A DNA stretch of 64,000 nt from Leucoraja ocellata (taxonomy: Eukaryota): assembly GCA_036785375.1 (NCBI GenBank), contig JAWMAR010001538.1:62001-126000 (forward strand), given 5' to 3'. The notes beneath the pieces were generated by a model that had not been told where the DNA came from, searched no databases, and worked only from the letters and a program-made list of their open reading frames with translations. The position numbers and the translations under genes are program-made. How positions within the stretch are numbered: the stretch's first letter is position 1; each line of letters starts with the position of its first letter. Positions 2,201 to 49,122 of this stretch are shown piece after piece.

Positions 2201-3852
2201 GTTCCTCCAGCATCTTGTTTTCACTCAAAATTCCAGCATCACCAGTCTCTTGTTTCTCTCAATCACTAGTCAGTCCCACTTGCTATTCCTAAACCATACC
2301 TGCTCCATGAGATCAGTGAGGGCCTGTGCACTTACTTCACAACCCAAGCCAAGAGGTCATCACTGCATCAGAGTCGTTGCTAGACCAACAATACCACCAA
2401 TTACTGCATAAAACACTGGAGATGCAAATGACTGCATGGAAAGTACTTTGGTTGTTGGTTCAGTGATTGGTATTGATATTGGTTACAGTGAACATCTTTG
2501 TATTGCGTGCTATCCAGTCAAATCGTACCATACATGAGTGCAATCACACCATTCTTGAGTACAACTGGTAGTGCATAAGGAGCAAGGAAATGGAGTGCAG
2601 AATGTACTGTTACAGCTACAGAGGATGAGCCGAAAATAACGAATCAGACTAACTCATCTCTATCAATTGGTCTACAACAAACGCATGTGTGTGACAGTGA
2701 ATTAGAACACTTTGGAAAAAGAAGGACTAGGAAACTGTTAGAACGGTTACTGTATTCAAAGTAAGAGAATTAAGATGCTATCGTCACAGCCAACACTAAT
2801 GCAAGACGACAACCAACCCTTTGAACAATGCCTGCAGGAACTATTTGTGCAAATTTGTTCTGAAACATGCTAACAAGTATGAATCACACACATCAGTAGA
2901 TTAAACCCATGACACATCTTCATTTGCAATGTTATTGAAGACCGGCCCAAGGCGTCTTCAGTTAGACTGAGAAGCCCTCTGGCATTGTACAGTTGGCAAA
3001 CTTCCAGAGAACAAGGGATGATGGTGTAGGATTTCTGTGGCAGGTTTGCAGGTGACACCAACTGGAGCCAGCGTGGGATCTTTCAGGCATAACGAGATCG
3101 CAAAACTGCCTGGATATTGAATAAAAAAACATTTATGTTTCAGATTTACAGCATCTGTAGCTTTCTTTTGCTTTTCAATTATCGCATTGATATTAATTGC
3201 TGTTGACTGCAGCTTCACTAGCCAAGTGTGACAGTGTAAAGAAATGCTGTATCTCTGGAGGAAAACAAAAGGGTCAAAGTCAATTCAACTCTAATCGGAT
3301 AAATAAAAGGGCTTGAGGAGAAATTAGCCTTGTCAGGCGTGAAAGATTTATGCCATGAAATTCAGAGAAGGATGAAAAACAGCAGAGAGTTTGAAGCCAT
3401 TGGTAGATAACAGAGATTGGGTTGATTCCAAGCTTCTAATTCCACAGAGTTGGCTTTGCAAGTTCCTCGAAGCTTCCTTGAGTTCTGAGGAACTTACAAA
3501 TGCAACATGAGTTTGAAGTTAAAGATAGGGCTGATGTGCTCAGCAGGTACGTTGCACTGCTCCTTATGTCTGGAGATGATGCATTAGATACTGCAACATG
3601 AGACGTGTGTGCAGCTGTAATTATAGTAATGCCAAGACTAAGCAGGAGCCCAATGGCTGAGGCCATGGTGATAGGAAGTGCTTTATATACTGTATGCCAG
3701 AGGTGAGCGCTCTGATTTTAACCTGGGGCCAAAGGTAAGCAAAGGGCCTGGAGAGGCCGTGCCAGGCTCAACCTATTTCAAAAGCTATGTCCTACTCAGG
3801 GTCTCATCTTCCCTACGGGCATTTCCTCAGGACAGGTTGACTTATACCACAG

Positions 3853-3945
3853 GTAGACAAAAGTGCTGGAGAAACTCAGCGGGTGCAGCAACATCTATGG
3901 AGCGAAGGAAATAGGCAACGTTTCGGGCCGAAACCCTTCTTCAGA
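3853..3945 (-). mobile_element. Penelope-derived short element with intact hammerhead core
   Basis: Minus strand CTGAAGA-AGGGTTTCGGCCC-GAAACGTT; TTGACTTATA repeated at 3837-3846 and 3946-3955. Confidence 0.75.
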
Positions 3946-4199
3946 TTGACTTATAATTTATAACCTATTAACTTATACCACTCCTTCTGTATGTTCTGCA
4001 GTAGATGATGAGACCAGTGTGGGTCCCACAGGCTCTGCCACAGGTGGACAAGAGGAAGGGGGGGGGGGCAGTTTGTGAGGTGTTCACTCGGTCCACACTG
4101 GCCTTCTGTGTGCTCCTGACACTGAATACTCTTTCTGTCCTACAAGTGGTCATGGATCAGAAGTTCCCAGGAGTCAGTGGGGAGGTTGCACTTTATAAA

Positions 4200-5703
4200 G
4201 GTTCGGAGAACATCCTTAATTCTATTTTGGTAGATTGCTCCTTGATCGTGTGCAGTTGTGGTCACCCCATTGCAGGATGGAAGTGAAGGCTTTGGAGAGG
4301 GTGCAGAAGAGAATTATTAGGATGTTGCCTGGATTCAAAGCTATTAGTTGCAAGGAGAGATTGGACAAACTTGGATTGTTTTCTCTGGAGCATTGGAGGT
4401 TGAGGAGAAACCTGATAAATGTATATAAAATAATGAGAGACATAGATACAATAGACAATCAGAGCCTTTTTGTCCAGTTGAAAGGACAAGACATTAGGAC
4501 GGAGGTACTTGGAGCAGTCAATGGAAGTGTCTTGAGAGCAATCAGTGTTATCATCAAAGAAGTACTGAAGGTACTGTTGTGAATGAAGGTAGACAAACCT
4601 CCAGGGCCTGATCAGATATATCTGAGGACATTGCGGGAAACTAGAGAGGAAATTGCAGGAGCCCTGGTTGAAATTTACGAGTCGTCCTTAAATACAGGAG
4701 AGGTGCCAGAAGACTGGATGGTGGCAAATGTTGTGCCTCTTTTCAAGAAGGGCTGCAGCGAAAATGCTGGGAACTATAGGCCGGTGACTTAACATCTGTA
4801 GTTGGAAAGTTACTAGAGAGTATTGTGAGGGATAGGTTATACAGGCATTTGGATGGGCAAGGGCAGATTAGGGATAGTCAGCATGGTTTTGTATGTGGGA
4901 GGTTGTGTCTCACAAATCTGATTGATTTTTTTGAAGACGTGACCAAAAAGGTCGATGAGGACATTAGGGTGGGTGGGGGAATGGTTGATGGAATTTAATA
5001 CAGAGAAGTGTGAGGTGTTGCATTTTGGGACATCGAACAAGGGCAGGACCTGCACAGGTAGGCCTCTGGGTAGTGTTGTAGAACAGAGGGATCTAGGAGT
5101 ACAGGTGCATGGTTCCTTGATGGTCAAGTTTCAGGTAGATAAGGTGGTCAAAAAGGCTTTTGGCACTTTGGCCTTCATCAGTCAGAGTATTGAGTATAGA
5201 AGTTGGGAGGCCATGTTGCAGTTGTATAAGACGTTGGTGAGACCGCATTTAGAATATTGTGTTCAGTCTGGGCACCATGTTATAGGAATGATATTGTTAA
5301 GCTTGAAAGGGTTCAGAAAAGATTTACGAGGATGTTGCCTGGACCAGAGGGTGTGAGCTATAGGTTGAGTAGGCTGGGTCTCTATTCCATGGAGCGCAGG
5401 AGGATGAGGCGTGATGAGGTGTGCAAAATCATGAGAGGAATAGATCGGGTAGATGCACAGAGTCTTTTGCCCAGAATAGGGGAATTGAGGACCAGAGGAC
5501 ATAGGTTCAGAAGGGGAAAGGGAAAAGATTTAATAGGAATCCGAGGGGTAACAATTTCACACGAAGGGTGGTGGGTGTATAGAACAAGCTGCCGCAGGAG
5601 GTAGTTGAGGCTTGGACTATCCCATCTTTTAAGAAACTGTTAGATAGGTACATGGATAGGACAGGTTTGGAGGGATATGGACCAAGCGCAGGCAAGTGGG
5701 ACT
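4200..5703 (+). mobile_element. CR1-clade LINE fragments (ORF2 RT region, internally deleted)
   Basis: ORFs include KPPGPDQIY..EVPEDWMVANVVPLFKKG..NYRPV, EWLMEFNTEKCEVLHFG and LYKTLVRPHLEYCVQ. Confidence 0.9.
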
Positions 5704-6320
5704 GTTGAGTATAGAAGTTGGGATGTAATGTTAAAATTGTACAAGGCATTGGTGAGGCCAATTCTGGAGTATGGTGTACAATTTTGGTTGCCTAATTATA
5801 GGAAGGATGTCAACAAAATAGAGAGAGTACAGAGGAGATTTACTAGAATGTTGCCTGGGTTTCAGCAACTAAGTTACAGAGAAAGGTTGAACAAGTTAGG
5901 GCTTTATTCTTTGGAGCGCAGAAGGTTAAGGGGGGACTTGATAGAGGTTTTTAAAATGATGAGAGGGATAGACAGAGTTGACGTGGAAAAGTTTTTCCCA
6001 CTGAGAGTAGGGAAGATTCAAACAAGGGGACATGACATGAGAATTAAGGGACTGAAGTTTAGGGGTAACATGAGGGGGAACTTCTTTACTCAGAGAGTGG
6101 TAGCTGTGTGGAATGAGCTTCCAGTGAAGGTGGTGGAGGCAGGTTCGTTTTTATCATTTAAAAATAAATTGGATAGTTATATGGATGGGAAGGAAATGGA
6201 GGGTTATGGTCTGAGCGCAGGTATATGGGACTAGGGTAGATTATGTGTTCGGCACGGACTAGAAGGGTCGAGATGGCCTGTTTCCGTGCTGTAATTGTTA
6301 TATGGTTATATGTTATATGT
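5704..6320 (+). mobile_element. Young 5'-truncated CR1 LINE inserted in the 3' UTR of the preceding CR1
   Basis: Uninterrupted ORF2 C-terminus (LYKALVRPILEYGVQFW...FFTQRVVAVWNELP) with a (TTATATG)n tail; the host 3' UTR resumes at about 6321. Confidence 0.9.
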
Positions 6321-6389
6321 TGTAGCTGCGACATTGTTGGCCGGTGTGGGCAAGTTGGGCCAAAGGGTCTGTTTCCACACTGTATGACT

Positions 6390-6900: not shown

Positions 6901-7661
6901 CATTTAACCAGGGGATAGGTTAATTTAGCTCTGAGTTATGTTTACCTGCCTGCTTTTTTTCTATTCTCTGATTAAGTATTTCTCCAGCCCTTTTATGTGA
7001 TGCTACATTTACTCTCTGTGACTCCACCCCTTCCCTGTGACACAGTGTCATATGGCATGGGAACACGCCCTTTCCAAATCTGTAGCAAACATCAAGCATG
7101 CATTTACCAATCCTGTTACTTACTCCCCACATTGCCATAATCTTCTCCCAGATTCAAACACACCTACACAGCGACAATTTGTAGTGGCCATTTAGCCTAC
7201 CACCTCATACATCTCTTGGACGTGGGAGAAAACTGGAGCATGTGAAGCCTGTGAGATGTTTGCTTCTTCTTTCGTGTCCATCTTCCATGTTTCAAATGTT
7301 GACATCGCTGTCATCGTCCGTCCTGAAAAGGATGCAAGCTCCCGGCAACAATCAGTGGGAGCCATCCCTTGTTGCAATAGATGATGGTGGTAGCAGAATT
7401 AGCTCAGGATACTTCCAGTTTCCAGCCCCGCTACATGGACGCTTCTGCTATGGGGCCAGACGTTTACTACAAAAATTAGTTGATGGGACTAAAATATTGT
7501 AACTATGTATATGATTATCACATGTGCAGTGAGCCAGCATTTCGAATGGTCATCGGCCATCTGGTGATAGCCCTCAGACTGTTCCATCATGGTACTGATT
7601 CACAAACCAATGGAACTGATCACTGGAATCATCACTATGGGATTCTTCATTCTATAATTAA

Positions 7662-8084
7662 AGGGCCTGTCCCACGAGCATGCGACTCCATGCGGCAAGC
7701 GCGACCTAAGCGACTCCATGCGGCAAGCGCGACCTAACGTGGTCGCTTGAGCCGTACGGCCTCGCGGGAACGGTCCCACTTCAATCGCCGGTGCCGTATG
7801 GAGTTGTGCAGAGCTGGTCCCGACATCGCGCAGGGCTCTGAAAAACAGACCGTGTTTAAAAATTCCGCGCGGCAACGACCTGCCGGCCCGCAGCCGCCTC
7901 GACGGCGTACGTAACGTGCGAACGTCCCGCGGACTTCACTCGAACTTCATTTCACTCACTCGGCCTCCGTGCGGCCCCCACTTCTGGTTTGGTCGCCTTT
8001 GCCGTATGCAGGCGCATGCTGGTGGGACCGGCCCTTTAGGCCGCGCTTGCCGCATGCAGGTCGCATGCTCGTGGGACAGGCCCT
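7662..8084. mobile_element. PIF/Harbinger-type MITE
   Basis: Perfect 25-bp TIRs AGGGCCTGTCCCACGAGCATGCGAC; TAA on both sides (7659-7661, 8085-8087); GC-rich interior with no recognisable ORF. Confidence 0.85.
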
Positions 8085-8944
8085 TAAGCCCTCGGTTTGC
8101 ACATAACACTCGTTGTGTGCTATGACCAATATGAAATCCTACATTGCATGTCATCATAAGAAATGTTACCTCTGTTTTTCTCTCCACAGATTCTGCCTGA
8201 CCTGCTGAATGTTTAGCGGCATCTTCAATATTTGTTTCAGGTTTCTAGTATCTGCAGATATTTGTTATGTTGTGAATCACACAGTCTCATCTCACCCAGC
8301 TAATTGAGGACTTGCCATTTGTGCTTTCAGTTTGATGGAGAATTCTTCTCATTTGACTGACAGAGTCTTCCATTGGAGCGATATTCATTTCTTAGCATAA
8401 TGCTGGCATGAAGGAAGCTTTTCCAACCTGTTTATTTTGCTTTATCATCAAACAATCTGACCCAGTAAAATAGCTGCTTGGTTTCCTTGTGTTTTACAAA
8501 GTAAATGAAAAGATGGTGTCTGTTATCAAGATAATGAAACTTCAAGAAGAGCTGAGAAGAAATCCCCAAGGGGATGCATTGAACTTTCTCATGTAGATGC
8601 CAGGTTCTTTCAGAGAATAATCTGTGCTCATCAGATCCGAGTCCCGTAGATGCAGCTGATATCATCAGCCTTTAAACGTCAATCAGAAGATTCAACCAGT
8701 GTCGATCATCTTCAAGTTATCTACCATCTCATTTAAAATAAAATACCCTGTTATTTTTCTATAAAGATATCAGCATGCAGTTTGGATATTTTAACACTTT
8801 CACTTTGACAGCTCAGGAGTCCCAGTGAGAGAAAGATATAGAATGCTAGTCCCACTGTCTCTTGACACATCCTGCGGTGGCAGGCAATGTAACTGACAAC
8901 ACACTGTCCTCAATTTCATGGAATCTCCTGTCACCAAACAAAGT

Positions 8945-9485: not shown

Positions 9486-9860
9486 GTGTAGGAAAGATCT
9501 GCAGATGCTGGTTTAAATCGAAGGTAGACACAAAATGCTGGAGTAACTCAGCGGGACAGGCAGCATCTCTGGAGAGAAGGAATGGGTGAGGTTTCGAGAC
9601 CGTTCTTTGGATGAGAACATACAGGGCAAGATTAGCAAGTTTGCCGATGATACAAAAGTGAGTGGTTTTGCAGACAGTGAAGATGGTTGTGAAAGATTGC
9701 AGCAGGATCTGGATCGATTGGCCAGGTGGGCGGAGGAATGGTTGATGGAATTTCTGTCTTCAGACTGAAGAAGGGTCTCGACCCTAAACGTCACCCATTC
9801 CTTCTCTGCAGAGATGCTGCCTGGCCCGCTGAGTTACTCCAGCATTTTGTGTCTACCTTC
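9486..9860. mobile_element. Penelope-derived inverted-dimer element with a CR1 RT fragment at its hinge
   Basis: Inverted arms; CCTTCAGACATCCT at 9472-9485 and 9856-9869; internal ISKFADDTK segment. Confidence 0.8.
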
Positions 9861-12559
9861 AGACATCCTTCCTGTAATGGGGCGACCAGAACTGCATGCA
9901 ATGCACCAAATGCCGTCTATCCAAAGTCATCCTGAGCTGCATCATGACTTCCTGACTCTGACACTCAATGCCGTTGCTTGTAAAAGCAAGCACACCATAT
10001 GCTCCATGTGTAGAGTGGCCAAGGCTTAAGAGAGGAGGTTAATTTTAATGAATATTTTAATGGAGGGGCTATGGTGAGATTTGTTGAGTCCCTTAGCAGC
10101 TAGACAACTGAAGCAGCAACAGCCAGAAGTAAGGATCGCTGAGAGATCAGATTTGGAACAATGAAGACGTCTCTGTCAATTGGAGAGCTGGAGAAGGTTT
10201 TGGGTAGTTGGAGAGAGTGGGAAGCTTTGAATGTGAGGGTGGCAATATGAAAACCACCGCATTTGTGAACCAACAGCAAGAGCGGGATGAAAGGTAAACA
10301 TAGCTCGCGGATGTGAGCAGCAGAATTTTCAATGAGCTCCAGTTAATGGAGGCTGGCCTGAAGGGGTTGGGAATTGTGATGTCCGGATGGTGAATTTCCA
10401 CATCACATCGTTCAAGCAGGTCAGAGTCAGTGATATTACTGGCAGAAGTGGTGGTCATCGTGACAGAGAGAACTTGGGGCTGCAAGCTCAGATGCAGATC
10501 ACACACAAGGCTGAGACTGTGACATAAGTTGACGGAAGCCTCCCATAGCCTTTAGTACTGAAGCTCAGTACGTTGTAAGTTGGAACTCCAAAGTGCTGCC
10601 AATGTATTCCTAGATTGCGAAGCAGGAAAACTCAGGCCTGTTGGTCTGATGGTGTTTACTGACACCTCTAATCAAGTTCAAAATGCATAACCAATTTGAG
10701 AAATTAGAAATAAATGATGTCAATAATGAATTTAAATATTTTGGTTAGGTTATTGAAATAGCGGACGTGGGGGGTGGGGGTACTTACAGAAACAGTTTTA
10801 ATGGACTTTGAGAAGACAATTATGAGGGTTGATATAGGGCAACGTCAGCTAAACTTAAAACTCTTCAAGCTGAAGGCAAATGATTGTGGTTAGCAGATTG
10901 ATGAGGCTGTAGAAAAGAAACAGGAGGTAAAGGGAGTATTTGCATTGTCGAGTAGTTGCCAGTAATGTCCCACAGAGATGTCTAATGGACCTTCAACTAT
11001 TTGTTCCATTCATTAACAAAATAGACAGCAGTAGATCAGAGTTTGCAGCAACACCAGGGCAGGTGGGATTATGCATAGCGTAAGTGGTGAAGACTACAAA
11101 AGGAAAGAGCTGAGTATTATCTTAACTAGAGAAACACAACAAACAATGCAAAAAATTGGATTTAAACGATAATCAGAAAGACCAAAATACAGAACATGTT
11201 GGAAATGCTCAGCAGATCAGACAGCACCAGGGGGAAAGGAAACAGAGGTAATGTTTTGTGCTGAAGACCCTTCATCAGACTGATGGACATTAATGTGTAA
11301 GGAACTGCTATTTTCATGCACAGGGTGAATTAATTGGTGAAACTCCCTTTTCCAAGAAACAACAATTTTTTGTTGCTGGCAGGTATTAAAGACACAGGTG
11401 AGTGCGTGTGGTTGGGACACAGATCAACAGAGATTTCACTTAATGGTAGAACAGGTGGAGGGGCTGCAGACTTAACTCATGCTGCAGTTCCTCTGACAGA
11501 AATAGCCAGACACAAAACTGGTCACACTTGTGAGAGGGAGTGTTGCCAATTCAATCATCCTGTGCATGAGAAAGCAATTCCTCGCTCCTTAACATCCAGA
11601 ACCACGACAGACACACTCCATAAACACTCAGTGAGACCCATGACCCATAGGGTTAGTGAAAACCATACATCAAGAATGAACACAAATTGGAAACCAACTA
11701 GAATTATTCCTTTTTCCACCTCTACTCCATTCACTTAGTGATATATTCTTCATATGTACTCACTGTTCCTCTTTCATTACTTATGTCTCCATAATGTCCC
11801 ATTTTCATTATTAAATGTTATTTATCTGTCATTTGCCTGGTATGCCTACTTTGACGAAGTTCTCCTCCTCTCCAGAAGGGTCCTAACCCAAAACGTTGCC
11901 CATCCTTTTTCCTTCAGAGATGCTGCCTCACCCGTTGAGTTTACTCCAGCACTTTGTGTCTATCTTCAGTACGAACATCCACAGTTCATACCTACACGTC
12001 ATTGCCTGCTCCACTGCAAAATCCCCTCAAGGTATGCCTACTTTGAAGACGTTCTCCTCTTTCCAGGCCTGAAGAACGGTTCCGACCCGAAATGTAATCC
12101 ATCCTTTTTCTCCAGAGGTGCTGCCTGACCCGACAGAGTTAATCCAGCACTCTGTGTCTATCGTTAAATTGAATTAATCATTGGGATCCAATCAATTTCA
12201 TCACTCACTCTCACTGTCGAAAATTTCTCCAGTGAATCTGATGATTCCTAAACTTGGTACCATTGATTTTTCCCCACTCTATTTTATATCATTTAGCGGT
12301 ATGTTCTTCACTATGTAATCATTGTGAAGTTATACATCATTACGGTGTTCATCATTTAGCAATGTACCCATCACTGTCCACTCATAATGTAGTCATCCAT
12401 TCTACTCTGTTCACTTACTTTGTGATATACTCTTCATATGTACACACTGTTCCAACTCCTCTTTCATTACTTACAAGTATGTCTCCATAATTCTTATTAT
12501 TAAATGTTATTTATCTGTCATTTGCCTGGTATGACCCATCGTCCTTAATGTTTCTTGAG

Positions 12560-12680: not shown

Positions 12681-12807
12681 GCATATGTGGAGAGCCAATA
12701 ACTTTTGTTGGTGTTGGAAATACTTGGCAGCTCCAGCGTCCTCTGTGGTTTCTCTCTCCACAGATGCTGACCGACCGGTCAAATATGTCCAGCAGTCTCT
12801 GCTTTAA

Positions 12808-14106: not shown

Positions 14107-16029
14107 CTTTTATTTCAGATTTTCTGGATCTGCAGCTGTTATTTTCTCACTGTCTAGGGTGGGAGTTGAACCTATTAACTTCTGACTCAGTGATGATAAT
14201 GATTTCACTGAGGACCCTGGTGCTGTTTGCATTTGGCTAACTCATACAGTGTTACAATCTCTGCCAATGGAGGAGCCTGTCTCAGGTCCCTCATCCCCAG
14301 GCGTTGGGTAGGTAGAGATAACCCAGAGAGATGGTTTCCTCTTCCCCAGGAGCTCACTGCCCCCACAGAATCGACCTGTGGCCTTGGCTGCCTTCTCCAT
14401 CTCTGACCCAGGGTTTCCTGGTGAGCAGCAGCTCACAAGGCAATGAGGGCTTAAAGCCGGCAGTGTTTCCTGCACTCGGAGAATGACGGTAGTGTGGGTA
14501 GCTGGGCCTTCACTCACATGTGGGCTTATGAGGTGGTGGTAGAGGAGGGGTGGGTGGGGCACAGGTTTTATAGATGAGTAGGGGTCATGTAGCCTAGGCA
14601 ACCTTGCAGGCTGAATATAGCCAGGGATTGGGGCATGTCAGCGGATGTTCCAGTTACTTGGAATGTGCAATCTGCAGTTTGGGAAGCTGACCCAGGAAAA
14701 TTAGGACTGCACTGCACGGCTATTCGACTGTCTACAGAGAAACCCTCAAACCACACACACCGCCCTGACTGGGAGATGTACGGTCCATGTCCTTATTAGA
14801 ATTCCAGAATAGCCAGTTGGGAATTCTTTCACCACTAGCACTCCAACAGACCAACAGCTGGATGTCAACCTTCTGACAGGTTCAACATTATGTGGGTGAC
14901 AAAGAATGCAGATGAACCAGAATGTTACCTTCCCTTTTTAACTGGCCATTTCAGGATCTGCTTGAGACTAATCATGAAGGCAAGAACTAAGCAAATCATT
15001 CTACCAAACCAAATCCAACTAATAACAAATCCATTCCACCATTGACCCTCAGTCATGGAAACCTTTACTGTGGTGCCTTCCATGTGCATCTGGCTACTTA
15101 GACCGAGATTCTCAATGGCTGCAATCGCGGTGATGGAAGTCTGTTCCCACATGATGTGCAGAGTTGTGAGGAATTCCCAGACTGCCTGGCTCTGGGCTGC
15201 TTCAACTTGTTATGAATGACCACACACTGTTAGAGAGTAGTGGTGGGATCGTGAATGCTCTCGACCTGAGAGGGACTAGGCAATTAATAGAAGAGGGGAA
15301 GACCCAAGACATTCTATATGTGTTTTACGGAGGTAGACCCATGGCTCTCTCCCTAGAATAGTTCACAGAGCCCTTACTGCATCTCATCTACTGTCACTGC
15401 CTCTTTATATAGAGCAAGGTTCTCCTGGAGACACGAGGAACTCCAGATGCTGGAACAATGAGCAAAACACAGTGCTGGAGAGGTAATCATGCATAGTATT
15501 TTTATTGACTGAATAGCACGCAATAAAAAGATTCTCACGGTACCTCAGTACGTGTGTCGATACAGTAAACCGTTGTTATAATGGACCAGGTTATTATAAT
15601 ACAATGCCCCGGCCTGTTGGAAGGCAGGATAGAGGCAGGAATTGGCAGTCAATGGTCTGGGTCCGCGGGTAGTTGGTGTGCAGGTGAGGGTCGGCAGTGG
15701 CGGGTGGTGGTGGCAGACACGGCGTGGAAGTGGTACGAGTGGGGGGTGGGGGGGTGCAGGCAGCCCACAAACAACTTGCTCCAAACAACGTTTGCAAGTT
15801 CCTGTGTAATACCACCAGAGTTGGCCTTACCTCAATGTACATCTTTAACCGTGTGGGAAGGAACTGCAGATGCTGGTTTAAACCGAAGATTGACACAAAA
15901 AGCTGGAGTAACTCAGCGGGACAGGCAGCATCCCTGGAGAGAAGGAATTGGTGACGTTTCGAATGTGAGACCCTTCTTCAGACATGACTTCTTGTTACAT
16001 CTTTAATTTCTGGATTACTTAACTTTTCC

Positions 16030-22459: not shown

Positions 22460-22852
22460 TAGAAACAAGAACAGCAAATGCTGGTTTACCAAAAAAAAAG
22501 GACACAAAGTGCTGGAGTAACTCGGCGGGTCAGGCAGCATCTGTGGATAGGTGATGCTTCGAGTCGGGACTATTCTTCAGTCTGAAAAGACTGAAACGTC
22601 ACCTATCCATTTCCCCAGAAGCGCAGCCTGACCCGCCGAGTTACTCCAACACTTTGTGTCTTTTATTTTATTTGTAAAGCGAGCATTATTTATCAGTCTG
22701 AAGAAGGGTCTCGACCCGAAACGTCACCTATTCCTTCGCTCCATAGATGCTGCCTCACCCGCTGAGTTTCTCCAACACAGTTGCCGGCGTAGTCGTAGTT
22801 CTGGTCAGCGTCTACCTTCGATTTTTCCAGCATCTGCAGTTCTTTCTTAAAC
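22460..22852. mobile_element. Cluster of Penelope-derived short elements; intact hammerhead core at 22698-22726
   Basis: CTGAAGA-A-GGGTC-TC-GACCC-GAAACGTC. Confidence 0.8.
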
Positions 22853-23224
22853 ATTATTTAACAACCTCTCTCCAAAGCGCCGGCCCTTACAGTTATGGAG
22901 GTCCAACGCAAGGTCCTGGAAAACACAGAGTTTTCCATTTCTGGAGAGGCAAAGGTACAGAGGGAGAATGGGATTTGTCCCCAGTGCACCAGTACAAGAG
23001 ATGGCAACTCAGGGTAGAGTACTCAGAGACTCAAACGGTCATAAGTGATAGGGGAAGAATTAGGCCATTCGGTCCATCAAGTCTACTCCACCATTCAATC
23101 ATGGCTGATCCATCTCTCCCTCCTAACCCCATTCTCCTGCCTTCTCCACATAACCAACCCACCCCTGACACCACTCATCTCAAAATTGCCACCAGTTTGT
23201 GGTCCAGATACAATATAAAATGAC

Positions 23225-23655: not shown

Positions 23656-24418
23656 GACAGATACTAATTGGTGCCTGAACTAAATATGTGAGAGTCGGAC
23701 ATGCGGCTTCCCTTGTGTTCGTTTGCTGGATGTTGGACTGGATCAATAATTCCTAACCCCCTCCACCCCCGGGAGCCACCACCCCTCCCCCCCGGGGAAA
23801 TTAGTTCCTATCGGCACAGTTCACAAACGGGATGAATGGATTTGGGGGCGGGAGTTTGGAGGGGGGGAGGGGGGGGGGGGGGAGATACGGTTGTCTTTCC
23901 TTCCACCCACCCTTTCCCCCCATCAACGGAATATCTGAACGTTTATATGAAAACAAGTCACATTACAGCAGGCAAGAGGCGCGGGTTCCCTGTCTGATCC
24001 ACTGGCAGGTGGCTCCTGTTTTAGCCAAGGGGCTTCTGTCCATCTCGGGCGAGGAGCCGGGTCTGTCCGGTCTGGAGCTCCCAGAGGCTGCTGATAGTTT
24101 GGAATCTATTCACAAAGAGACAAGTGATTCTCCCCGCTCTGCTTGTGCTGTCGGCTGCCGAGCTGAGAATGATCCAAATCAAACGCTACCGCCAGAAAAC
24201 CCCAGGAAAACATCCGGGCGCAGCAACACTTGCTGTCCCCGTGCCTCAAACACTGATCAATGTTGCAGATAAATATCCTTTAAGAGAACTATGAGAGTCA
24301 GCGAGTTGCGAAAAGCGCTCGCCTTTCCAGCGGTGACTGGGGATCGCTGCTCCGTTCCAGAGGTAGCTCCCTCGCCGGAGCTTGAAGGCGAGCGGATCCT
24401 GTTGCCGGAGCTGCCGCC

Positions 24419-24748
<330 letters not shown>

Positions 24749-24797
24749 TCAGAGAGGCAAGGCGGCGGAGAGAGAGAGAGAGAGAGAGCCAGAGAAA

Positions 24798-25210
24798 GTG
24801 TAGGAAGGAATTGCAGATGTTGGTTTACGCAGGAACTCAGCGGGACAGGCAGAATCTCTGGAAAGAAGGAATGGGCGATGTTTCGGGTCGAGGCCTTTCT
24901 TCAGACTAGAAATAGAGAGGCGAGAAGCCATAGGTTTGAGGTGAGAGGCGAAAGATTTAATAGGAACCTGAGGGGCAACTTTTTTCACACCAAGCTTGGT
25001 GACAGGTGTATGGAACGAGCTGTCAGAGGAGGTAGTTGAGGTAGTGAATAATATCACAACATTTAACAACCATTTGGACAGGTACATGGATAGGATTATG
25101 TTTAGAAGAATATGGGCCAAACGCAGGCAGGTGGGACTAGGGTAGATGGGGCATGTGGGTCGGCGTGGGCAAGTTAGGTCGAAGGGCCTGTTTCCACGCT
25201 GTAAGACTCA
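24798..25210. mobile_element. Intronic Penelope-derived element (24798-24907) followed by a CR1 3' fragment (+ strand)
   Basis: Family motifs; RSHRFEVRGERFNRNLRGNFF. Confidence 0.8.
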
Positions 25211-25390
25211 AGGAGGGGGGACACGAGGAAACGGAGAAGAAAGAGTACATGGCATTGAACAGAGTCTGTGCAGGAGACAGGAAAGACAGAAAGCAGAAAA
25301 TGCTGGAATATTGTGTCGCGCAAGGAAGAACGATGAAAGTCAGATGGGCAATTAATAAACTTGCAAATGTTTGAATCTAAGTTTTTTTTT

Positions 25391-25565
25391 GGCCTTCCAT
25401 CACAGCTATGTGATGGATGTTTATGTAAAATGTAATTATGTTGTGTCTGGGTCTATTTGTGTGTAATGTATGGCTGCAGAAACGGCATTTCGTTTGGACC
25501 TCTAGGGGTCCAAATGACAATTAAATTGACTCTTGACTCTTGACTCTTGACTCTTGACTTGAATC
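25391..25565 (+). mobile_element. 3' tail of a SINE/non-autonomous element (Rex1-like tail) with a (TTGACTC)n end
   Basis: CCTTCCATCACAG..GGATGTTTATGT shared with 49710-49770; hairpin before TGACAATTAAA. Confidence 0.6.
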
Positions 25566-25584
25566 TGCACCAAATGTTTGAATC

Positions 25585-25733
25585 TGCATCTATGGAGCGA
25601 AGGAAATAGGCAACGTTTCGTCCCGAAACGTTGCCTATTTCCTTCGCTCCATAGATGCTGTTGCACCCGCTGAGTTTCTCCTGCATTTTTGTGTACCTTC
25701 GATTTTCCAGCATCTGCAGTTCCTTCTTAAACA
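25585..25733. mobile_element. Palindromic Penelope-derived element in the C1QL1 intron
   Basis: CATCTATGGAGCGAAGGAAATAGGCAACGTTTCG-TCC-CGAAACGTTGCCTATTTCCTTCGCTCCATAGATG. Confidence 0.85.
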
Positions 25734-26526
25734 ACAAGTAATGGGAGTGAGTCTGGCGGCGGCGGCTTGGTGAGGGATCTCGGAGCCTGGTTCGAGCTGG
25801 TGCGGAGGGAGAGGAGCGGACGGGACGGGAGGGGGTGACTGGGGGGGTGGCAGGAGGGAGGCATAAGCCCCGCATCGGGGCCGCTCCACAGCCGCGGGGC
25901 CGGGCTGCTCTCCGCCGCCTCGCAGACCCGTCGGCACTCGGGCAGAGCCTTCAGCGGCGGAGGAAGGAGGTGGGGGGAGGTTGGGAGACAGAGACTGACG
26001 AAAGTTATGGGACGGAGGGCAGACGGCAAAGCAGGTTAGGGACACACACTGAGCGGGGCTGCTTCCCCCCATCCCGCCCCCCGTGCCCTCTCCATCTCAC
26101 CCTCTCACTAGCCCCACTCTCCCTTCAGTCCCCCTCCCTCCTATCCCGTCCCACCCCCCCCCCCCCCAACCCCTCTCGGCTCGCAACGTTGTCTATTTCC
26201 TTCGCTCCATGCTGCCGCTGAGTTTCTCCAGCATTTTTGTGTGCCTTCGATTTTCTAGCGTCTGCAGTTCCTTCTTAAACACCTCTCCTCTCCCTCTCCC
26301 TCCTCTCCCGTCCCCTCCCACCCTTCCCTCTGCCTCCTCCCATTCCCTCTGTCCTTCCATCTCCCCTTTCCTCTCCTTTCTCTCCCTTCTCCCCTTTCTC
26401 TCCCCCTCCTCTCCATCGCCTCTTCTTCTCTGTCCCTGTCCCCTCCCTTCCCCTAGACTCCCCTTCATCCATTTCCAGTCACGTTTCCCAATTCCCTGAC
26501 ATTCCCCCTTCTCCACCCGACCCTCA

Positions 26527-27520
<994 letters not shown>

Positions 27521-35611: not shown

Positions 35612-36680
35612 AGTTGCATGTTCCAGCTGCCATCTTTAATACCTTCCCACCAGGAAGGTATTACAGCCCTCCGTTTCTTCCTCAACTGTAGAACCAGCCA
35701 GTTTGCATCTACTGACCCTCTCCTCTGTGAGCAGAGTTGGTCCTTACCCTTAAAAACTTCTCCTTTGACTCCACACACTTCCTCCAAACCCAAGCCATAG
35801 CTATGGCCACTCGCTTGGGTCCCAGCTATGCCGGCCTCATTGTAGGGTATTTCGCACACTCACTGTTCCAGGTGTATACTGGCCCTATCCCTGAACTCTA
35901 CCTCTACTACAGTGATGACTGCATCGGTGCACTGCCTGCACCCATGCAGAATTCACTGACTTCATCAACTTTGCAACTAATTTCTATCCTGCACTCACTT
36001 CGACCATCTCTGACATCTCCCTACCCCCCCCCCCCCCCCCCCCCCAGGTACTTTCCTTTGCAACTGCAGGAGATGCAACACCTGTCCCTTTACCTCCCTC
36101 CTCGACTCCATCCAAGGACCCTGACAGTCTTTTCAGGTGAGGCAGAGGTTCACTTGTACCTCGTCTACTGTATCCACTGTGTCAACTCCTGTATATCGGC
36201 GAGACCAAGCGGCAGGCTCGGCGATCGTTTTGCTGAACACCTCTGCTCAGTCCACCTTAACCTACATGTTCTCCAGGTTGCTCAGCACTTTAACTCCCCT
36301 TCCCATTCCCAATCTGACCTTTCTGTCCTGGGCCTCCTCCATTGTCAAAGTGAGGCCCAGTACAAATTGGAGGAACAGCTCCTCCTATTTCGTTTGGGCA
36401 GCTTACACCTCAGTGGTATGAACATTGACTTCTCTACAAATAACCCTTGATTTCCCTCTCTCTCCATCCCCTCCCCTTCCCAGTTCTCACACCAGTCTTA
36501 CTGTATTTGACTACATTCTATCTGTCCTGCCCACTCCCCTGACATCAGTCTGAAGAAGGGTCTCCTCCCGAAATGTCACCCATTCCTTTTCTCCAGAGAT
36601 GCTGCCTGCCCCGCTGAGTTACTCCAGCATTTTGTGTTTACCTTTGATTTAAACCAGCATCTGCAGTTCTTTCCTGCACT
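35612..36680 (+). mobile_element. Penelope-like element (degenerate RT + GIY-YIG) ending in a hammerhead-bearing pLTR
   Basis: NFSFDSTHFLQTQAIAMATRLGPSYA, YSDDCIG and LGDRFAEHL; CTGAAGA core at 36550. Confidence 0.88.
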
Positions 36681-38923: not shown

Positions 38924-39020
38924 CAGTCTGAAGAAGGGTTTCGGCCCGAAAAGTTGCCTATTTCCTTCGCTCCATAGATGCTGCTGCACCCGCTGAGTTT
39001 CTCCAGCACTTTTGTCTACC
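38924..39020 (+). mobile_element. Penelope-derived hammerhead mini-element with a 17-bp TSD
   Basis: TCCAGTGCCCTC(C/T)AGTT at 38907-38923 and 39021-39037. Confidence 0.85.
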
Positions 39021-39467: not shown

Positions 39468-39667
39468 TGTTTAAGAAGGAACTGCAGATGCTGGAGAATC
39501 GAAGGTACACAAATGCTGGAGAAACTCAGCGGGTGCAGCAGCATCTATGGAGCGAAGGAAATAGGCAATGTTTCGGGCCGAGTTTCGGCCCAAAACGTTG
39601 CCTATTTCCTTCACTCCATAGATGCTGCTGCACCCGCTGAGTTTCTCCAGCATTTTTGTGTACCTTC
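39468..39667. mobile_element. Palindromic Penelope-derived mini-element with a 15-bp TSD
   Basis: TCAATGTATGATCCG at 39453-39467 and 39666-39680; inverted arms meeting near 39580. Confidence 0.88.
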
Positions 39668-42800: not shown

Positions 42801-43664
42801 AGGTTTAGGTTCATTATTGCCACTTGTAATGAGGTACAGTGAAAAGCTTTGTTTTGCATGTTATCCAAACTGATCAGATATGCCAGACACAAATGCAATC
42901 AAACCAAACTAGTTCAATAAATAGAGCAAAATGGGTGATGCAGAATGCTGATTCTAATTCTTGCCACTGTAGTGCATCTGTTCCATAGACAAAGCTCAAT
43001 GTTCACAATGGATTAGAGGTAAATCACAGTACCCTTGTTTATGGAAGGACCATTCAGCAGCATGAAAACAAAGGGGAAGAAGCTGTTCCTGAGTGAGGAG
43101 TGTGCCTTCAAGCTTCTGGTCCTTCTGTCAGTTAGGAGGAGGAGAATCTAGAAGAGGCTGGTGGATATTTTCTGGGACAAAAGGAAGTACTGATCGCTGC
43201 TGTGGTTTTCAGTGTCATGGAGATGTACAGCACAGAAATGCTGCAGTACTCGGCGGGACAGGCAGCATCTCTGGGGGGAAAAAAGGAACGGTGATGGTTT
43301 GGGTCGAGACTGTTCTTCAGACATCTCGTTGAGTTACTCTAGCATTTTGTGTCGATCTGTGGTTTAAACTAGCATTTGCAGTTCCTTCCTGCACAGAAAT
43401 GGCCTGTCAGTCCATCTCATCCCTGCTGAGCATGTCTATTTATGCTAATCTCATTTGCCTCCATTAGATCAGAACCCCTCAATGCCTTTCCCATCCAAGT
43501 ACTTGTCCAAATGCCTTTTAAATGTTGTAATTGCATCTGCCTCGGCTCCCCACTGGGTGGCTCACTGTTTGGAAGAGTTTCCTCTTTATGTTGGGGACCT
43601 GGGATGGTGATTATTACAATACAATTCCCAGTGAACATTGAGCTGCACTGGGAAAGCTCTGGGG

Positions 43665-43960
43665 TCACAGTTTAAGGATCAGGGGGAAATCTTTTAGGAC
43701 CGAGATGAGAAAAAAACATTTTCACACAGAGTGGTGAATCTCTGGAATTCTCTGCCACAGAAGGTAGTTGAGGCCAGTACATTGGCTATATTTAAGAGGG
43801 AGTTAGATGTGGCCCTTGCGGCTAAAGGTATCAGGGGGTATGGAGAGAAGGCAGGTACAGGATGATCAGTTGGATGATCAGCCATGATCATATTGAATGG
43901 CGGTGCAGGCTCGAAGGGCCGAATGGCCTACTCCTACACCTATTTTCTATGTTTCTATGA
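43665..43960 (+). mobile_element. CR1 LINE 3' end
   Basis: Same family as the copy at 12985-14056; (TTTCTATG)n tail. Confidence 0.9.
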
Positions 43961-44974: not shown

Positions 44975-45615
44975 ATAGACATTGGGTGCAGGAGTAGGCC
45001 ATTTGGCCCTTCGAGCCAGCACGGCCATTCAATGTGATCATGGCTGATCATCCCCAATCAGTACCTTGTTCTGCCTTCTCCCCATATCCCCTGATTCCGC
45101 TATTTTTAAGAGCCCTATCTAGCTCTCTCTTGAAAGCATCCAGAGAACCTGCCTTCACCGCCTCGGAGGCAGAGAATTCCACAGACTCGCCACTCTGTGA
45201 GAAAAAGTGTTTCTTCATCTGTTCTAAATGGCTTACACCTTATTCTTAAACTGTGTCCCTTGATTCTGGACACCCCCAACATCGGGAACATGTTTCCTGC
45301 CTCTAGTGTGTCCAAGCCCTTAACAATGTATGTTTCAATGAGATAACCTCTCATCCTTCTAAATTCCAGAGTGTACAAGCCCAGCTGCTCCATTCCCTCG
45401 GCATATGGCAGTCCCGCCATCCCGGGAATTAACCTTGTAAACCTACGCTGCACTCTCTCTCAATGGCAAGAATGTCCTTCCTCAATTAGGGGACCAAAAC
45501 TGCACACAATACACCAGGTGTGGTCACACTAGGGCTCTGTACAACTGCAGAAGGACTTCTTTGCTCCTATATTTGATTCCTCTTTTTATAAAGGCCAACA
45601 TGCCATTCGCTTTCA
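44975..45615 (-). mobile_element. CR1 LINE 3' fragment
   Basis: QRRFTRLIPGMAGLPY..LGLYTLEFRRMRG. Confidence 0.9.
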
Positions 45616-45879
45616 CTACATCTGAAGTAGCAGCCCTGAAGTTTATGCTGCCAGCCTAATTGAGAAGGACAACCCAGAGGTGTCCTTTGCTGTCATGATT
45701 TAGGTGTTCACAGCATTGGTTTTGGCCTGAGTCAGCTGGTAGGAAACTCTAGATCTACTCTAGAAACTGATGGCAAGGTGGATCCAACAGTCCATGGGGA
45801 AAGTCAGTGGACTTGGCTGGAGACTCGTGTGGCCATAAGCTTTCTGAATGGTGATAAACATAACACAAGCTGGGTTGGT

Positions 45880-47045
45880 CTGGCTTCCATCCAGCACTCA
45901 AATACACCTGGACCATTTCTGACACTTCCCTACCATTCCTTGACCTCACTATCTCCACTGCAGGTGATAGACTTCTGACCGACATCCACTATAAACCCAC
46001 TGACTCGCATGGCTATCTGGACTACACTTCTTCCCACCCTGCTTCCTGTAAGGACTCCATCCCCTACTCACAATTCCTCCGTTTACGCCGCATCTGCTCC
46101 ACGGATGAGGCGTTCCACACCAGGGCATCTGAAATGTCCTCATTCTTCAGGGAACGGGGGTTCCCCTCCACCATAGATGAGGCTCGCACCAAGGTCTCTT
46201 CCATACCCCTCTCTCCCCATCTCCCCCCCCCCCACTCGCAACAAGGGCAGAGTCCCCCTAGTCCTCACCTTTCACCCCACCAGCCATCACATACAACAAG
46301 TAATCCTCCGTCAGTTTCGCCACCTCCAACGTGACCCCACCACTCGCCACATCTTCCCATCTCCCCCCATATCTGCCTTGTGCAAAGACCGCTCCCTCCG
46401 TAACTCCCTTGTCAATTCATCCCTTCCCTCCCGTACCAAATCCTCCCCGGGCACTTTCCCTTGCAACTGCAAGAGATGCAACACTTGTCCCTTTACCTCC
46501 CCACTCAACTCCATTCAAGGACCCAAGCAATCGTTCCAGGTGCGACAGAGATTTACCTGCATCTCTTCCAACCTCATCTATTGCATCCGCTGCTCTAGAT
46601 GTCAGCAGATCTATATCGGTGAGATCAAGCGGAGGTTGGGCGATCGTTTCGTCGAACACCTCCGCTCGGTCCGCAATAACCAACCTGACCTCCCGGTGGC
46701 TCAGCACTTCAACTCCCCCTCCCATGGCCAGAGTGAGGAACATCGGAAATTGGAGGAAAAGCACCTCGTATTCCGCTTGGGGTGTCTGCATCCTGGGGGC
46801 ATGAACATTGAATTCTCACAATTTTGTTAGTTCTTGCTGTCTCCTCCCCTTCCTCAGCCCTCCTTGCTGTCTCCTCCCCTTCCTCAGCCCTCCTGCTGTC
46901 TCATTTGGGCTCCTCCTCCTTTTTCCTTTCTTTTGCCCCCCCCACCCTCGATCAGTCTGAAGAAGGGCTTTGGCCCGAAACGGTGCCTATTTCCTTCGCT
47001 CCATAGATGCTGCTGCACCTGCTGAGTTTCTCCAGCATTTTTATG
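45880..47045 (+). mobile_element. Penelope-like element (RT thumb + GIY-YIG endonuclease) ending in a hammerhead-bearing pLTR
   Basis: ORF 46177-46830 includes VPLVLTFHP, CNCKRCNTC and NLIYCIRCSRCQQIYIGEIKRRLGDRFVEH; CTGAAGA..GAAA at 46957-46980. Confidence 0.92.
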
Positions 47046-47524
47046 TATCTTGGGTTGGTCTGGGGCTGGTTCAGGGGCAGTTTGTGGGGAGGAGGGATGT
47101 AGTTCAGAAGCAAGGCTGGGGTAGAAGGGACAGGATGATGGATGGCAGCTGGAAATGTGTGATGGGCATCTGACATTGAGTTTGGGATTGACGATTGTGT
47201 GTTGGATGTGGATAAGGCACGTGGTCAGATCAGTCGGTGGGAGGGTTATCAATAGATTAGAGGCTCTGAGCTTGGTAGGATAGGGTGAGGAAAGTTTGGT
47301 ACCATGGGGAAGTGCAGTCCTGCAGAGGAGCAAGATAAACAATTTAAGGGGTCTGTTTCTGATCATGGGTGGGAATCAAAATCAGAGGGGACTCTGATGT
47401 AATGTGGGCAACATCTCATGACGTGCATTGCACCACTGGGCACGTATAACACGTCTGGCCTCTTCCATGCATTAGCATGATGAGGGCATGTAGTATGAAC
47501 CCTGATTCCAGTGATTCCTAATGC

Positions 47525-47670
47525 GTAGGAAGGAACTGTAGATGCTGGTTTAAATCGAAGATGGACACAATGCTCAGACTGAAGAAGGGTCTCGACCCGA
47601 AATGTCACCCATTCCTTCTCTATCGAGATGCTGCCTGTCCCACTGAGTTACTCCAGCATTTTGTGCATCT
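47525..47670. mobile_element. Penelope-derived hammerhead mini-element with a 19-bp TSD
   Basis: TTCCAGTGATTCCTAATGC at 47506-47524 and 47670-47688. Confidence 0.85.
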
Positions 47671-49122
47671 TCCAGTGATTCCTAATGCAAGCTACAATAT
47701 TGTATGTAAAATTGTAGCAGATTGTGAACCAATTTGCAGGCAAAGGCTGGTGATGACGTGCTGGTTGCTGACAGTATGATGATCCTGGCACTCATTCCCT
47801 TCTCTAAACATGTTTGTCTGTTTTTACATAGAGGGTTGTGGTGTCTACAATGCATTGCCAGCAGTGGTGGTGGAGGCAGATTTGATGGTGGCATTTTAAG
47901 AGGATTTTGGATCCTTGGGCCCATAGATATTTAGTGAATGCAGAAATGTGGATCATGCAGGCAGAGGAGAATAGTTTAACTTGGCATTATGTATGGCACG
48001 GACATTGTGGGACAAAGAGTTTTCTTGTGCTGTAATATTCTATTTTATGTTCTATGAATCATCTGTATACGTGTCTATGATGATTTGGGATTAGTTATTT
48101 GTGAGTCAGTGTCTTTGACCATTGGTGTATGGACATGCATGGTGGTTTTGTGTATATGCACATGCATGTAGTGTACAGTTGGGCATGGGGAGGTATATTC
48201 ATCCTTGCATGTATGTGCTAACCTGTGTGCACCAATTGATAATGTAAAGTGGGTCAGACTATGATCAGATATTCACAGTGCCCCGTGTCTGTCTTTAGTC
48301 ACGTGTGGGTACCTGTTCATTTGCAGAAGAAGCAGCAATTTAAACAGATATTCAAACAAATCTGAAATGAAACATAACATTACAGATGAGACTTTTGTGG
48401 CACGAAATCTCATTGCATGTCACTTCAGAGCAAAGTCAAATTGGGGATTGAAATGCAGGTCTGCAGGCTACTGTCAATCTCCTCCACATAGTGTTCCCAG
48501 GGCAGGTCGTGCACAGCTTAGACATAATGTAGAAATCCACTGTTCTGTAAAAACACTTTGTGCTTTAACCCAGTGCAAAGCTCCCCGTTAGACACTCCCA
48601 TGCAGTGACAGCACAGGTTAGATAGAATTGTAGAAATTTACTACATAAAGGGCAGCCATTAGGGTTGTTTTATCCATCATAACAAAAAACAAACATCAGC
48701 TTAGTGCCTCTGTCAGCTTGTGGAAGGTGTTTATACCCATTAGTCTCATCTCCCCACTCGAGGCCTGTATCCTTCTGTGTTTATTATGTAACTCCACCCC
48801 CAGTGGCAGTAAATTCCAGATACCAACTACTTTTTCGTCCATTAAAAAAAGTAGCATCTCAGACCCCCTTTAAAACTCCTTCCTCTCTTTAAATCTATGT
48901 CCTCTTAGAATGTTTTTCCATATTAAAAAAAAAAAATCTACCCATTGTTGCCATTTATAATTGTAAATATCTGTCATCCCTTGGACTCCTTCATCCAAGT
49001 CTCTCCTTACCCTCCCTCACTCCAGATCCGCCTATCTAATCCCTCCCTATGACTAATCTTTCATCCTGGTGAATCACTGTGAACTCTCTCCTGAATAACT
49101 ACATCCTGAATAACTGCCACCA

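Follow-up and report, generated by a model that had tools for sequence, protein, structure and literature searches.

The window analyzed here, a stretch of 64,000 bases from the skate Leucoraja ocellata, carries many stubs of about 100 to 135 bases from the end of a Penelope-like element (PLE), and many of these stubs retain part or all of a predicted self-cutting RNA motif. The repeat is the end module, a pseudo-LTR (pLTR) plus an optional tail of ~35 nt, of an elasmobranch PLE with a Neptune/Nematis-type linker. The stubs probably represent short by-products that form when the element copies itself, and not a separate ribozyme-driven parasite. Using a profile built from 19 window copies, we found 48 module pieces at E<1e-4 and 58 at E<0.05; the ten weak matches (E 1e-4 to 0.05) were excluded from every count, and five shuffled windows gave 0 matches to the profile. 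The pieces are ~35 to 135 nt long, lie in 29 loci, and cover 4812 of the 64,000 bases (7.5%), with 43 of the 48 inside 3837-47688. A preliminary description of this DNA had reported more than a dozen copies of 100 to 200 bp, an abundance now exceeded and a size set too high. Its claim that the family far outnumbers the coding copies agrees with 46 noncoding against 2 coding pieces and with a module depth 3 to 7 times that of the highest coding bin in four related sequencing runs. There are two main subfamilies, A and B, each with a coding partner in the window (identity of 91-92% and 87-89%). One reading frame is open past +47 of the module in both. Short "inverted" BLAST matches at 9513, 15878, and 23489 were set aside as the module-internal GATGCTG/CAGCATC repeat. 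In the literature we found no description of this Penelope family in sharks or rays, although Repbase and Dfam, outside the search, may hold it; the exact pattern of the skate core had 0 matches in metagenome contigs.

The Penelope origin and the presence of the same module at the end of both coding copies, as given in the preliminary description, were both borne out, as tblastn showed just two coding loci in the window and the module terminates each of them (Table 1). Coding copy B has, in order, an RT thumb, a CX4CxxC linker, a GIY-YIG endonuclease, a pyrimidine-rich 3' UTR, and a tailless subfamily B module, and it is flanked by a 13-bp target duplication (45871-45883 / 47051-47063). For coding copy A, whose start is that of the preliminary description and whose protein match begins at 35627, a target duplication was sought and none was found. 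The two 3' UTRs upstream of these modules have no other match in the window. Aligned motifs show an RT followed by a C-terminal GIY-YIG domain with a CCHH motif; the Pfam families RVT_1 and GIY-YIG were scored by the homologs P0001/P0018, and the window's own frameshifted coding fragments scored no Pfam family at all. The linker is C-x4-C-x2-C in the consensus and CNCKRCNTC in the window. Assignment of the skate element to Neptune or Nematis presumably rests on the host group. A CX2-5CxxC linker is common to Neptune and Nematis and absent in Penelope/Poseidon (PMC8557442), and the C-terminal GIY-YIG domain with its CCHH motif and the linker zinc finger are shared with Neptune/Nematis PLEs (Craig 2021, PMC8557442; Arkhipova 2013, PMC3846280).

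Table 1. Coding copies, modules, hammerhead cores, and doublets of the Penelope-like element in the window
Feature	Position	Strand	Remarks
Penelope-like element, coding copy B	45884..47050	+	5'-truncated, frameshifted; tblastn 54-70% to shark/ray proteins
Module ending coding copy B	46953..47050	+	core 46957-46984, U16.1 lost
Coding copy A	35612..36678	+	internally deleted, frameshifted; terminal subfamily A module with tail
Module and tail ending coding copy A	36546..36678	+	core 36550-36577
Best-preserved hammerhead core	22698..22725	+	CUGAAGA, extra A, 4-bp stem II, GAAA, ACGU palindrome; stem I 2 bp
Intact subfamily B core	3917..3944	-	GUU cleavage triplet; module ~3847-3944
Solo module with tail	22696..22851	+	12-bp duplication (1 mismatch), 22684-22695 / 22852-22863; 38-nt foreign insert inside
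Solo subfamily B module, short end	38924..39020	+	17-bp duplication; 5' end at CAG, immediately followed by TCTGA
Solo subfamily A module with tail	15849..15995	-	11-bp duplication; 12 extra 5' bases, 15984-15995
Head-to-head doublet	47525..47669	.	tail arm (-) and short-end arm (+); 19-bp duplication
Head-to-head subfamily B doublet	39471..39665	.	joined in loop II; one arm tailed; 18-bp duplication
Head-to-head doublet	9486..9855	.	encloses 146-nt CR1-like RT fragment (9608-9753); 14-bp duplication
Head-to-head doublet	43241..43388	.	13-bp duplication overlaps arm ends
Doublet	25586..25735	.	joined via stem II inverted repeat TTTCG/CGAAA; short fold-back-like arm
Doublet	22467..22686	.	arms share interrupted palindrome TCAG-T-CTGA at 22577-22585
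Doublet	1977..2199	.	outside the range of the preliminary description; one arm short end, other arm tail

The module opens with a minimal hammerhead, comprising the CUGANGA and GAAA...UH core, an unpaired base after A9, G10.1-C11.1, and a palindromic helix III. The last three features are also found in distant relatives, and all four resemble the minimal hammerheads of metazoan PLEs in passages of PMC4209133. These core and helix features support, at the level of predicted structure, the earlier assignment to minimal type I hammerheads of the dimer type. Stem I, previously described as weak (2-3 bp), measures 2 bp in both subfamilies, against 3 or more in 16 of 19 distant relatives. Stem II has 4 bp and a tetraloop (CUCG/UUCG) instead of the 5 bp proposed before, as a fifth pair would leave a loop of 2 nt and is C-G in just 9 of 21 copies. 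The skate motif differs from the metazoan PLE hammerheads in those passages (PMC4209133) in its 4-bp stem II and in its 2-bp stem I, where 3 to 5 bp are expected of the class, although D. virilis also has 2 bp. The positions of six cores previously listed as clear were right, but only those at 22698 and 3944 keep the core, stem II, and ACGT: U16.1 is missing at 46957, stem II is mismatched at 36550 and the palindrome there reads ATGT, 38928 has AAGT, and 47579 has ATGT. The core is covered by 24 of the 48 pieces; all core bases are present in 9 of these 24, stem II as well in 5, and the palindrome as well in 3. Cleavage of the core at 22698 is predicted after 22725, where the triplet ends, in keeping with the GUC formerly placed at about that position. 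A hammerhead model search had been suggested as a check, but no Rfam hammerhead model scores the window copies. Module monomers fold no better than shuffles (z 0.49, -0.26, 0.33), and forcing the dimer fold costs ~19 and 32 kcal/mol relative to the best fold.

Covariation of stem II in the window, another earlier claim, was not upheld: its score was reached by 260 of 500 shuffles, and both sides changed in 2 of 168 cells. The families differ by a single wobble, with U-G in place of U-A, and the GGGCT of 46968 is a private change (T in 1093/1178 and 1088/1143 reads of run X21). Among 19 distant relatives, compensatory stem II changes are real, so that, to judge from the alignments, the ribozyme is under selection in the master elements. 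The comparison of core with flank that had been proposed for subfamily variants came out in favor of the core, with shared variants in 0 of 10 non-CpG core columns and 23 of 65 others (Fisher p=0.026). Private divergence is alike in core and flank (6.6% versus 8.2%, p=0.41), and individual copies decay neutrally.

We then mapped the ends of the pieces, taking C3 of the core as position 0. The 5' stop is sharp and lies just before CUGA: 26 of the 29 pieces reaching +5 stop between -11 and +5, a count that short extensions of other subfamilies could escape, as the window profile covers the upstream UTR poorly. Ordinary early stops occur too, since 19 of 48 pieces begin 3' of +5, with secondary clusters at +10 to +13 (6/48) and +18 to +20 (5/48), within stem II. 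The 3' ends use two sites ~35 nt apart, +94 to +103 in 15 of 48 pieces and +122 to +131 in 17. Many stubs, solo or head-to-head, are inside their own 11- to 19-bp target duplication; duplications scoring >=11 were found at 8 of 35 loci (one low-complexity and two overlapping arm ends) and at 1 of 150 random intervals. Neighboring pairs are head-to-head in 13 of 19 cases, and four doublets have a tail on one arm only. The doublet at 25586..25735 sits in an intron of a C1q-like gene. A variant with CAGA before CUGA, which breaks stem I and is the reverse complement of TCAGTCTGA, was considered as a subfamily and rejected; 3 of the copies inspected are at inverted junctions, and such a variant is, from its sequence context, more likely made at insertion.

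These arrangements resemble solo and inverted PLE pLTRs (PMC8557442, PMC3846280), which also show head-to-head copies with palindromic junctions, one-sided tails, target duplications, and foreign DNA captured between arms. Head-to-head pairs have been described for Penelope (PMC3846280), whose tail is 30 to 40 bp (PMC8557442, PMC11167929), and passages of Cervera and de la Pena 2014 (PMC4209133) report that the genomes of fish, coelacanth, and frog hold single motifs by the thousand, along with nearby pairs on opposite strands; those passages name no cartilaginous fish and do not describe single-motif boundaries. Unlike the rotifer pLTRs (193-218 bp), the skate pLTR is about half as long, and most copies are solo or doublet forms inserted with target duplications of their own (46/48 pieces).

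The preliminary description had regarded the family as retrozyme-like. Non-LTR retrozymes (Cervera 2020, PMC7229834; Li, Clavereau, and Pollet, bioRxiv 10.64898/2026.07.22.740005) are likewise noncoding, pLTR related, and without a protein, and have a type I hammerhead; tandem units cut by dimeric hammerheads would be circularized and reinserted. The motif is of the dimer type, head-to-tail joints occur in related runs (47665 to 47579; 48 and 69 contigs), and retrozymes are reported in the preprint for the single cartilaginous fish it covers. However, the skate stubs are not tandem (none of 4 same-strand neighbors has two intact ribozymes), their ribozyme is minimal where that of retrozymes is canonical, and their ends are set by RT starts and not by the cut: only 2 of 48 5' ends and 0 of 48 3' ends lie within 2 nt of the cleavage site (+26 to +30). 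The joints amount to just ~3 to 4% of loose 5' ends, and no pile of molecule ends was seen in two RNA runs, a weak test as these are fragmented poly(A) libraries of relatives. Together with the short stem I and the unfavorable dimer fold, this makes a retrozyme origin highly improbable.

We lean, somewhat beyond even chances, toward reading the stubs as stand-alone insertions of the element's end module, probably made by its own reverse transcriptase and endonuclease through run-off from an internal start. By their sequence, stubs start within a few bases of the core and end at one of two sites ~95 or 130 nt downstream. The element RNA would begin at an initiator-like TCAGT just before the core, and we take TCAGT to fit the initiator consensus. 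Priming on the 5' module copy would then yield a fixed run-off cDNA of 100 to 135 nt, while priming on the 3' copy would give the rarer, coding, 5'-truncated copies. Doublets would form if synthesis proceeds on both nicked strands and the two cDNAs, or a single folded one, become joined through self-complementary sequence, for which TCAG-N-CTGA and stem II are candidates in the doublets. The hammerhead, selected in the masters, would be a decaying passenger in the stubs and would need to dimerize or be helped by a protein in order to act. A precedent is the Poseidon element PAc of Anolis carolinensis (Frangieh 2024, PMC11167929), whose enzyme initiates internally on the RNA, at two positions shortly 3' of the hammerhead, and copies to the RNA 5' end. 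The PAc hammerhead thus lies upstream of two internal RT start sites that produce the tail, as proposed for the skate; in both, targets are AT rich and no RNA-seq ends are at the cut. Unlike PAc, the skate element has a CX2-5CxxC linker, has no start codon at stem II, and left mostly 100- to 135-nt stubs as genomic products.

Sequencing reads bear on the 5' boundary. In four related runs, loose 5' ends at 47579 number 1594 to 3865 reads and 1618 to 1801 contigs and share no consensus beyond ...AGT (agreement of 0.34-0.36); the pile is sharpened by the reference copy's own mismatch at 47578, and a subfamily B pile is not among the matches listed. In RNA of run X21, module reads are strand-symmetric and coding reads are not. 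Among indexed datasets containing the stretch, none was recorded as RNA, and two raw RNA runs had zero depth on the unique flank of the locus, giving no sign that this locus is expressed. We regard internal-start run-off as the best explanation because 5' stops are sharp, there are two 3' ends, target duplications, and head-to-head pairs, both subfamilies have coding partners, core and flank diverge equally, module RNA is strand-symmetric, the coding-copy 3' UTRs are unmatched elsewhere in the window, and the loose ends lack a consensus. Against an RNA start, TCAGT equally ends a splice-acceptor-like tract; in Drosophila Penelope, transcription begins ~120 nt further 5', and the ribozyme marks the end of an intron (PMC2377424, PMC4209133). 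Some target-flanked inserts also hold foreign 5' sequence (e.g., 35 nt at 11840-11876), and TCAG before the core is absent in all 20 distinct distant relatives.

Ordinary 5' truncation would produce similar stubs if RT began every time on the 3' module of a long transcript and then stalled or switched template at the hammerhead hairpins or the pyrimidine-rich UTR, with palindromes favoring end joining. Such a process would account for the secondary clusters in stem II and for doublet junctions at hammerhead inverted repeats; Cervera and de la Pena read single motifs as truncated elements in passages of PMC4209133, and palindromes occur at the 5' ends of rotifer pLTRs (PMC3846280). We consider it unlikely, as the main stop is upstream of the hairpin, while an enzyme stalled by the hairpin should stop at the 3' foot, monomers fold no better than shuffles, and partnerless solo inserts also start at CAG (38924, 22696).

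The SINE-like amplification suggested earlier would mean that stubs within host transcripts hold the whole internal-priming signal and are copied in trans, most stubs thus coming from stubs. Stubs are indeed abundant in poly(A) RNA on both strands, foreign sequence lies within target duplications (9608-9753), and for several of the older variant groups the window holds no coding partner; moreover, rotifer pLTRs alone mobilize host sequence (PMC3846280) and retrozyme monomers derive from pLTRs (bioRxiv 10.64898/2026.07.22.740005). Copying from host transcripts, however, should read past the 5' boundary, while most target-flanked inserts hold no or few foreign bases. A poly(A) or simple-repeat tail is absent, and a simple pattern search of the sense strand found no exact A or B box in the 3 of 48 pieces examined. 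The term can stand in a loose sense, but A and B have coding partners and the copies bear ordinary Penelope end signatures, and we give this explanation little credence.

Neither the ribozyme nor the abundance of single copies is new; the sharp 5' boundary is the one testable novelty. The skate family offers a dense fossil record of the start, stop, and joining sites used in Penelope reverse transcription, for an element type in which the steps past first-strand synthesis are still unvalidated (PMC11167929). Such stubs are prone to be miscalled as SINEs, retrozyme monomers, or microRNA hairpins; the doublets match microRNA models, below threshold only. Should the 5' step be the place where the RNA begins, it would explain the fixed boundaries of pseudo-LTRs and inverted pseudo-LTRs and also the excess of minimal hammerheads over coding copies, with no need for an active ribozyme in the stubs. 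More tentatively, PLEs may use the 5' copy of their internal priming signal to produce a fixed run-off cDNA, akin to a strong-stop product, that is integrated directly, single or paired at ribozyme palindromes; this by-product would be among the commonest skate and ray repeats, each copy would locate the RNA start to a few bases, and it could be remobilized with flanking cargo.

Using a profile built from 19 copies of the module, the end piece of a Penelope-like element (PLE) that starts with a minimal hammerhead, we found 48 pieces at 29 loci (E < 1e-4), covering 4,812 bases or 7.5% of the window, and no match in five shuffles. A simple scan of the window for cores with CTGANGA and GAAA returned 10 from this family. 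All six cores named in the preliminary description were among them, and that description had also correctly placed a module at the end of both coding copies. The element protein is encoded at only two loci in the window (35627-36444 and 45876-46848). Subfamily B is young, with nine pieces at a median of 6% from the B consensus; for the remaining 39 pieces (subfamily A and older variants), the median divergence is 16%. The best A stubs share 91-92% identity with the module of coding copy 36538, and B stubs share 87-89% with that of coding copy 46935. CR1 fragments and a C1q-like gene are also present in the window.

Among named proteins, those most similar to the coding piece 46177-46827 come from whale shark, devil ray, stingray, zebra shark, and bamboo shark (54-60%), which marks the window as elasmobranch DNA. 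Given its vertebrate host, we take the skate element to be a likely member of the Neptune clade. The linker of its protein is C-x4-C-x2-C, a type described in PMC8557442 as present in Neptune and Nematis and absent from Penelope/Poseidon. P0004, a predicted protein of zebra shark, has a C terminus that crosses the 3' UTR, and its last residues, SLMKGLRPKRQ, are the translation expected from a related hammerhead core; this protein suggests that sharks may carry the same module. L080 and L081 are contigs filed under bacterial genomes; both encode this animal retroelement, L081 together with its hammerhead, and both are probably host contamination. A pair of old, like-oriented modules at 11828-12168 (+), the first of which has lost CUGA, share 36 nt of upstream sequence (89%) that the rest of the window lacks; this sequence represents either a local templated copy or another subfamily's 3' UTR.

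All the sequence marks that Cervera and de la Pena (PMC4209133) list for minimal PLE hammerheads are present in the module motif: the core, G10.1-C11.1, a palindromic helix III, and an unpaired base following A9. In stem II, 4 bp are capped by a tetraloop, and stem I has 2 bp. Of 81 related loci on metagenome and genome contigs (protein identity, 30-51%), 60 had 250 bases available, and 26 carry the same motif 88-319 nt behind the endonuclease match. The claim that stem II covaries within the window was not borne out: in 21 core-covering copies (of 24; the other three, which have large indels or a degraded start, were excluded), the score was reached by 260 of 500 shuffles, both sides had changed in 2 of 168 cells, and the GGGCT variant occurs in a single copy. 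When 19 distinct relatives were compared together with two copies from the window, all 21 retained the first pair of stem I, in five pair types, and the palindrome alternated between ACGT and ATAT; in this comparison, stem II pairing had been a criterion for selection, and the shuffle takes no account of relatedness.

Within the window, variants shared by at least five copies were absent from all 10 non-CpG core columns and present in 23 of the 65 remaining columns (p = 0.026). Subfamilies A and B differ in 18 of 129 columns, none of them in the core (p about 0.16), private changes are at 6.6% in the core versus 8.2% in the flank (p = 0.41), and core, stem II, and palindrome are all kept in 3 of the 24 core-covering pieces. 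Taken together, the relatives' pairing, the core without shared variants, and the even private changes point, at the sequence level, to a ribozyme motif that is under selection in the masters, the source elements, and decaying in the stubs. In predicted folds, monomers bury the core in a competing hairpin, and a forced dimer lies far above the best fold. For the Poseidon element of Anolis carolinensis, PMC11167929 reports that the ribozyme cleaves only with the element protein and is not needed for insertion in vitro. Single minimal hammerheads, at thousands per genome, were reported in 2014 (PMC4209133).

Counted from hammerhead C3, the 3' ends cluster at +94 to +103 (15/48) and +122 to +131 (17/48), and this spacing is an optional tail of 30-40 bp. 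In the anole element, a 30-40-bp tail is reported as the distance between two internal reverse-transcription starts (PMC11167929). Target duplications scoring at least 11 were found at 8 of 35 loci versus 1 of 150 random intervals, and a second pass added two, at 22684/22852 and at the coding copy. Of 19 neighbouring pairs, 13 are head-to-head, 2 tail-to-tail, and 4 same-strand. Four doublets have the tail on one arm and not on the other, resembling the one-armed tail also drawn for PLEs; junctions occur at self-complementary stretches (TCAG-N-CTGA at 22577, TTTCG/CGAAA at 25613, and loop II at 39582). For rotifers, PMC3846280 describes solo pLTRs, captured DNA, and head-to-head junctions that are palindromic. 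Around the two 3' ends, from +45 to +120, the predicted fold has in both subfamilies a long stem of AGAUGCUG with CAGCAUCU and inner hairpins (fold z, -2.65 for 25615-25730 and 0.01 for 9487-9607); the region is a candidate reverse transcriptase binding site.

The 5' ends are sharp: of the 29 pieces that extend to +5, 26 have their end between -11 and +5, and only 2 of 48 start near the predicted cut at +28. The TCAGT bases also close a pyrimidine tract in which no AG occurs over about 55-68 nt, much as in Drosophila Penelope, where, according to PMC2377424, an intron ends at the ribozyme and transcription starts further upstream. Retention of this AG in the stubs speaks against a template that had been spliced. 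The stubs are of Penelope origin, with their own target duplications, two 3' ends, and a sharp 5' end, and they decay neutrally. The anole work describes internal priming, copying to the template 5' end, extension of both strands, and a predicted dimer (PMC11167929). If the skate element RNA started at TCAGT, its 5' copy of the priming signal would yield a short run-off product, which would then be integrated.

In related data sets matched to 45860-47760, depth over the B module exceeded that of the highest coding bin by factors of 7 and 6 in the two polyA RNA runs and of 3-4 in the two contig sets, in which depth is no copy number. Among the matches listed, loose 5' ends number in the thousands with just ...AGT in common, and those beyond the tail are AT-rich. 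Among the places listed for this stretch, no pile-up site of molecule starts or ends was seen. A strong stop on a long RNA may contribute besides run-off copying, and SINE-like copying from host transcripts may contribute too. Module reads are strand-symmetric in a run where coding reads are not, which is compatible with passive transcription of modules inside host RNAs.

Neighbouring features are listed below. The HDV-like match resembles the mammalian CPEB3 ribozyme, with 29.1 bits (cut-off, 35), E = 0.0011 in the window scan, several broken pairs, and a single copy in the window. The GC-rich element, with inverted ends AAAGGGCCTGTCCCAC ... GTGGGACAGGCCCTT, is probably a non-autonomous DNA transposon. 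One intronic module locus lies within about 50 nt of the second C1q-like exon. The 38-nt insert lies 1.7 kb from the exon it matches, and short stretches at its two joints match the module; it is likely a templated capture of gene sequence, either nearby or paralogous.

Features neighbouring or interrupting the modules
Feature	Coordinates	Strand	Remarks
HDV-like ribozyme match	7392-7468	-	below cut-off
GC-rich element	7660-8090		inverted ends
38-nt insert inside module	22775-22812		antisense of C1q-like exon 24537-24574 (89%)
Two-exon C1q-like gene	24298-27360	-	collagen and C1q domains
Module loci in C1q-like gene intron	24797-24914, 25586-25735, 26175-26279		three loci

Retrozymes are described as tandem units with complete ribozymes (PMC7229834; bioRxiv 10.64898/2026.07.22.740005). 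The skate stubs differ in this respect, and the preliminary reading of them as retrozymes was not supported; head-to-tail joints were seen in at least 48 and at least 69 contigs versus at least 1,618 and at least 1,801 loose 5' ends among the matches listed. The preprint derives retrozymes from pLTRs and reports some in one cartilaginous fish (bioRxiv 10.64898/2026.07.22.740005). The literature searched, which did not extend to repeat databases, gave no account of this PLE module family in sharks or rays and none of solo pLTRs arising by run-off copying. The sharp boundary and the run-off origin it may reflect offer one testable mechanistic lead in an otherwise known kind of element.
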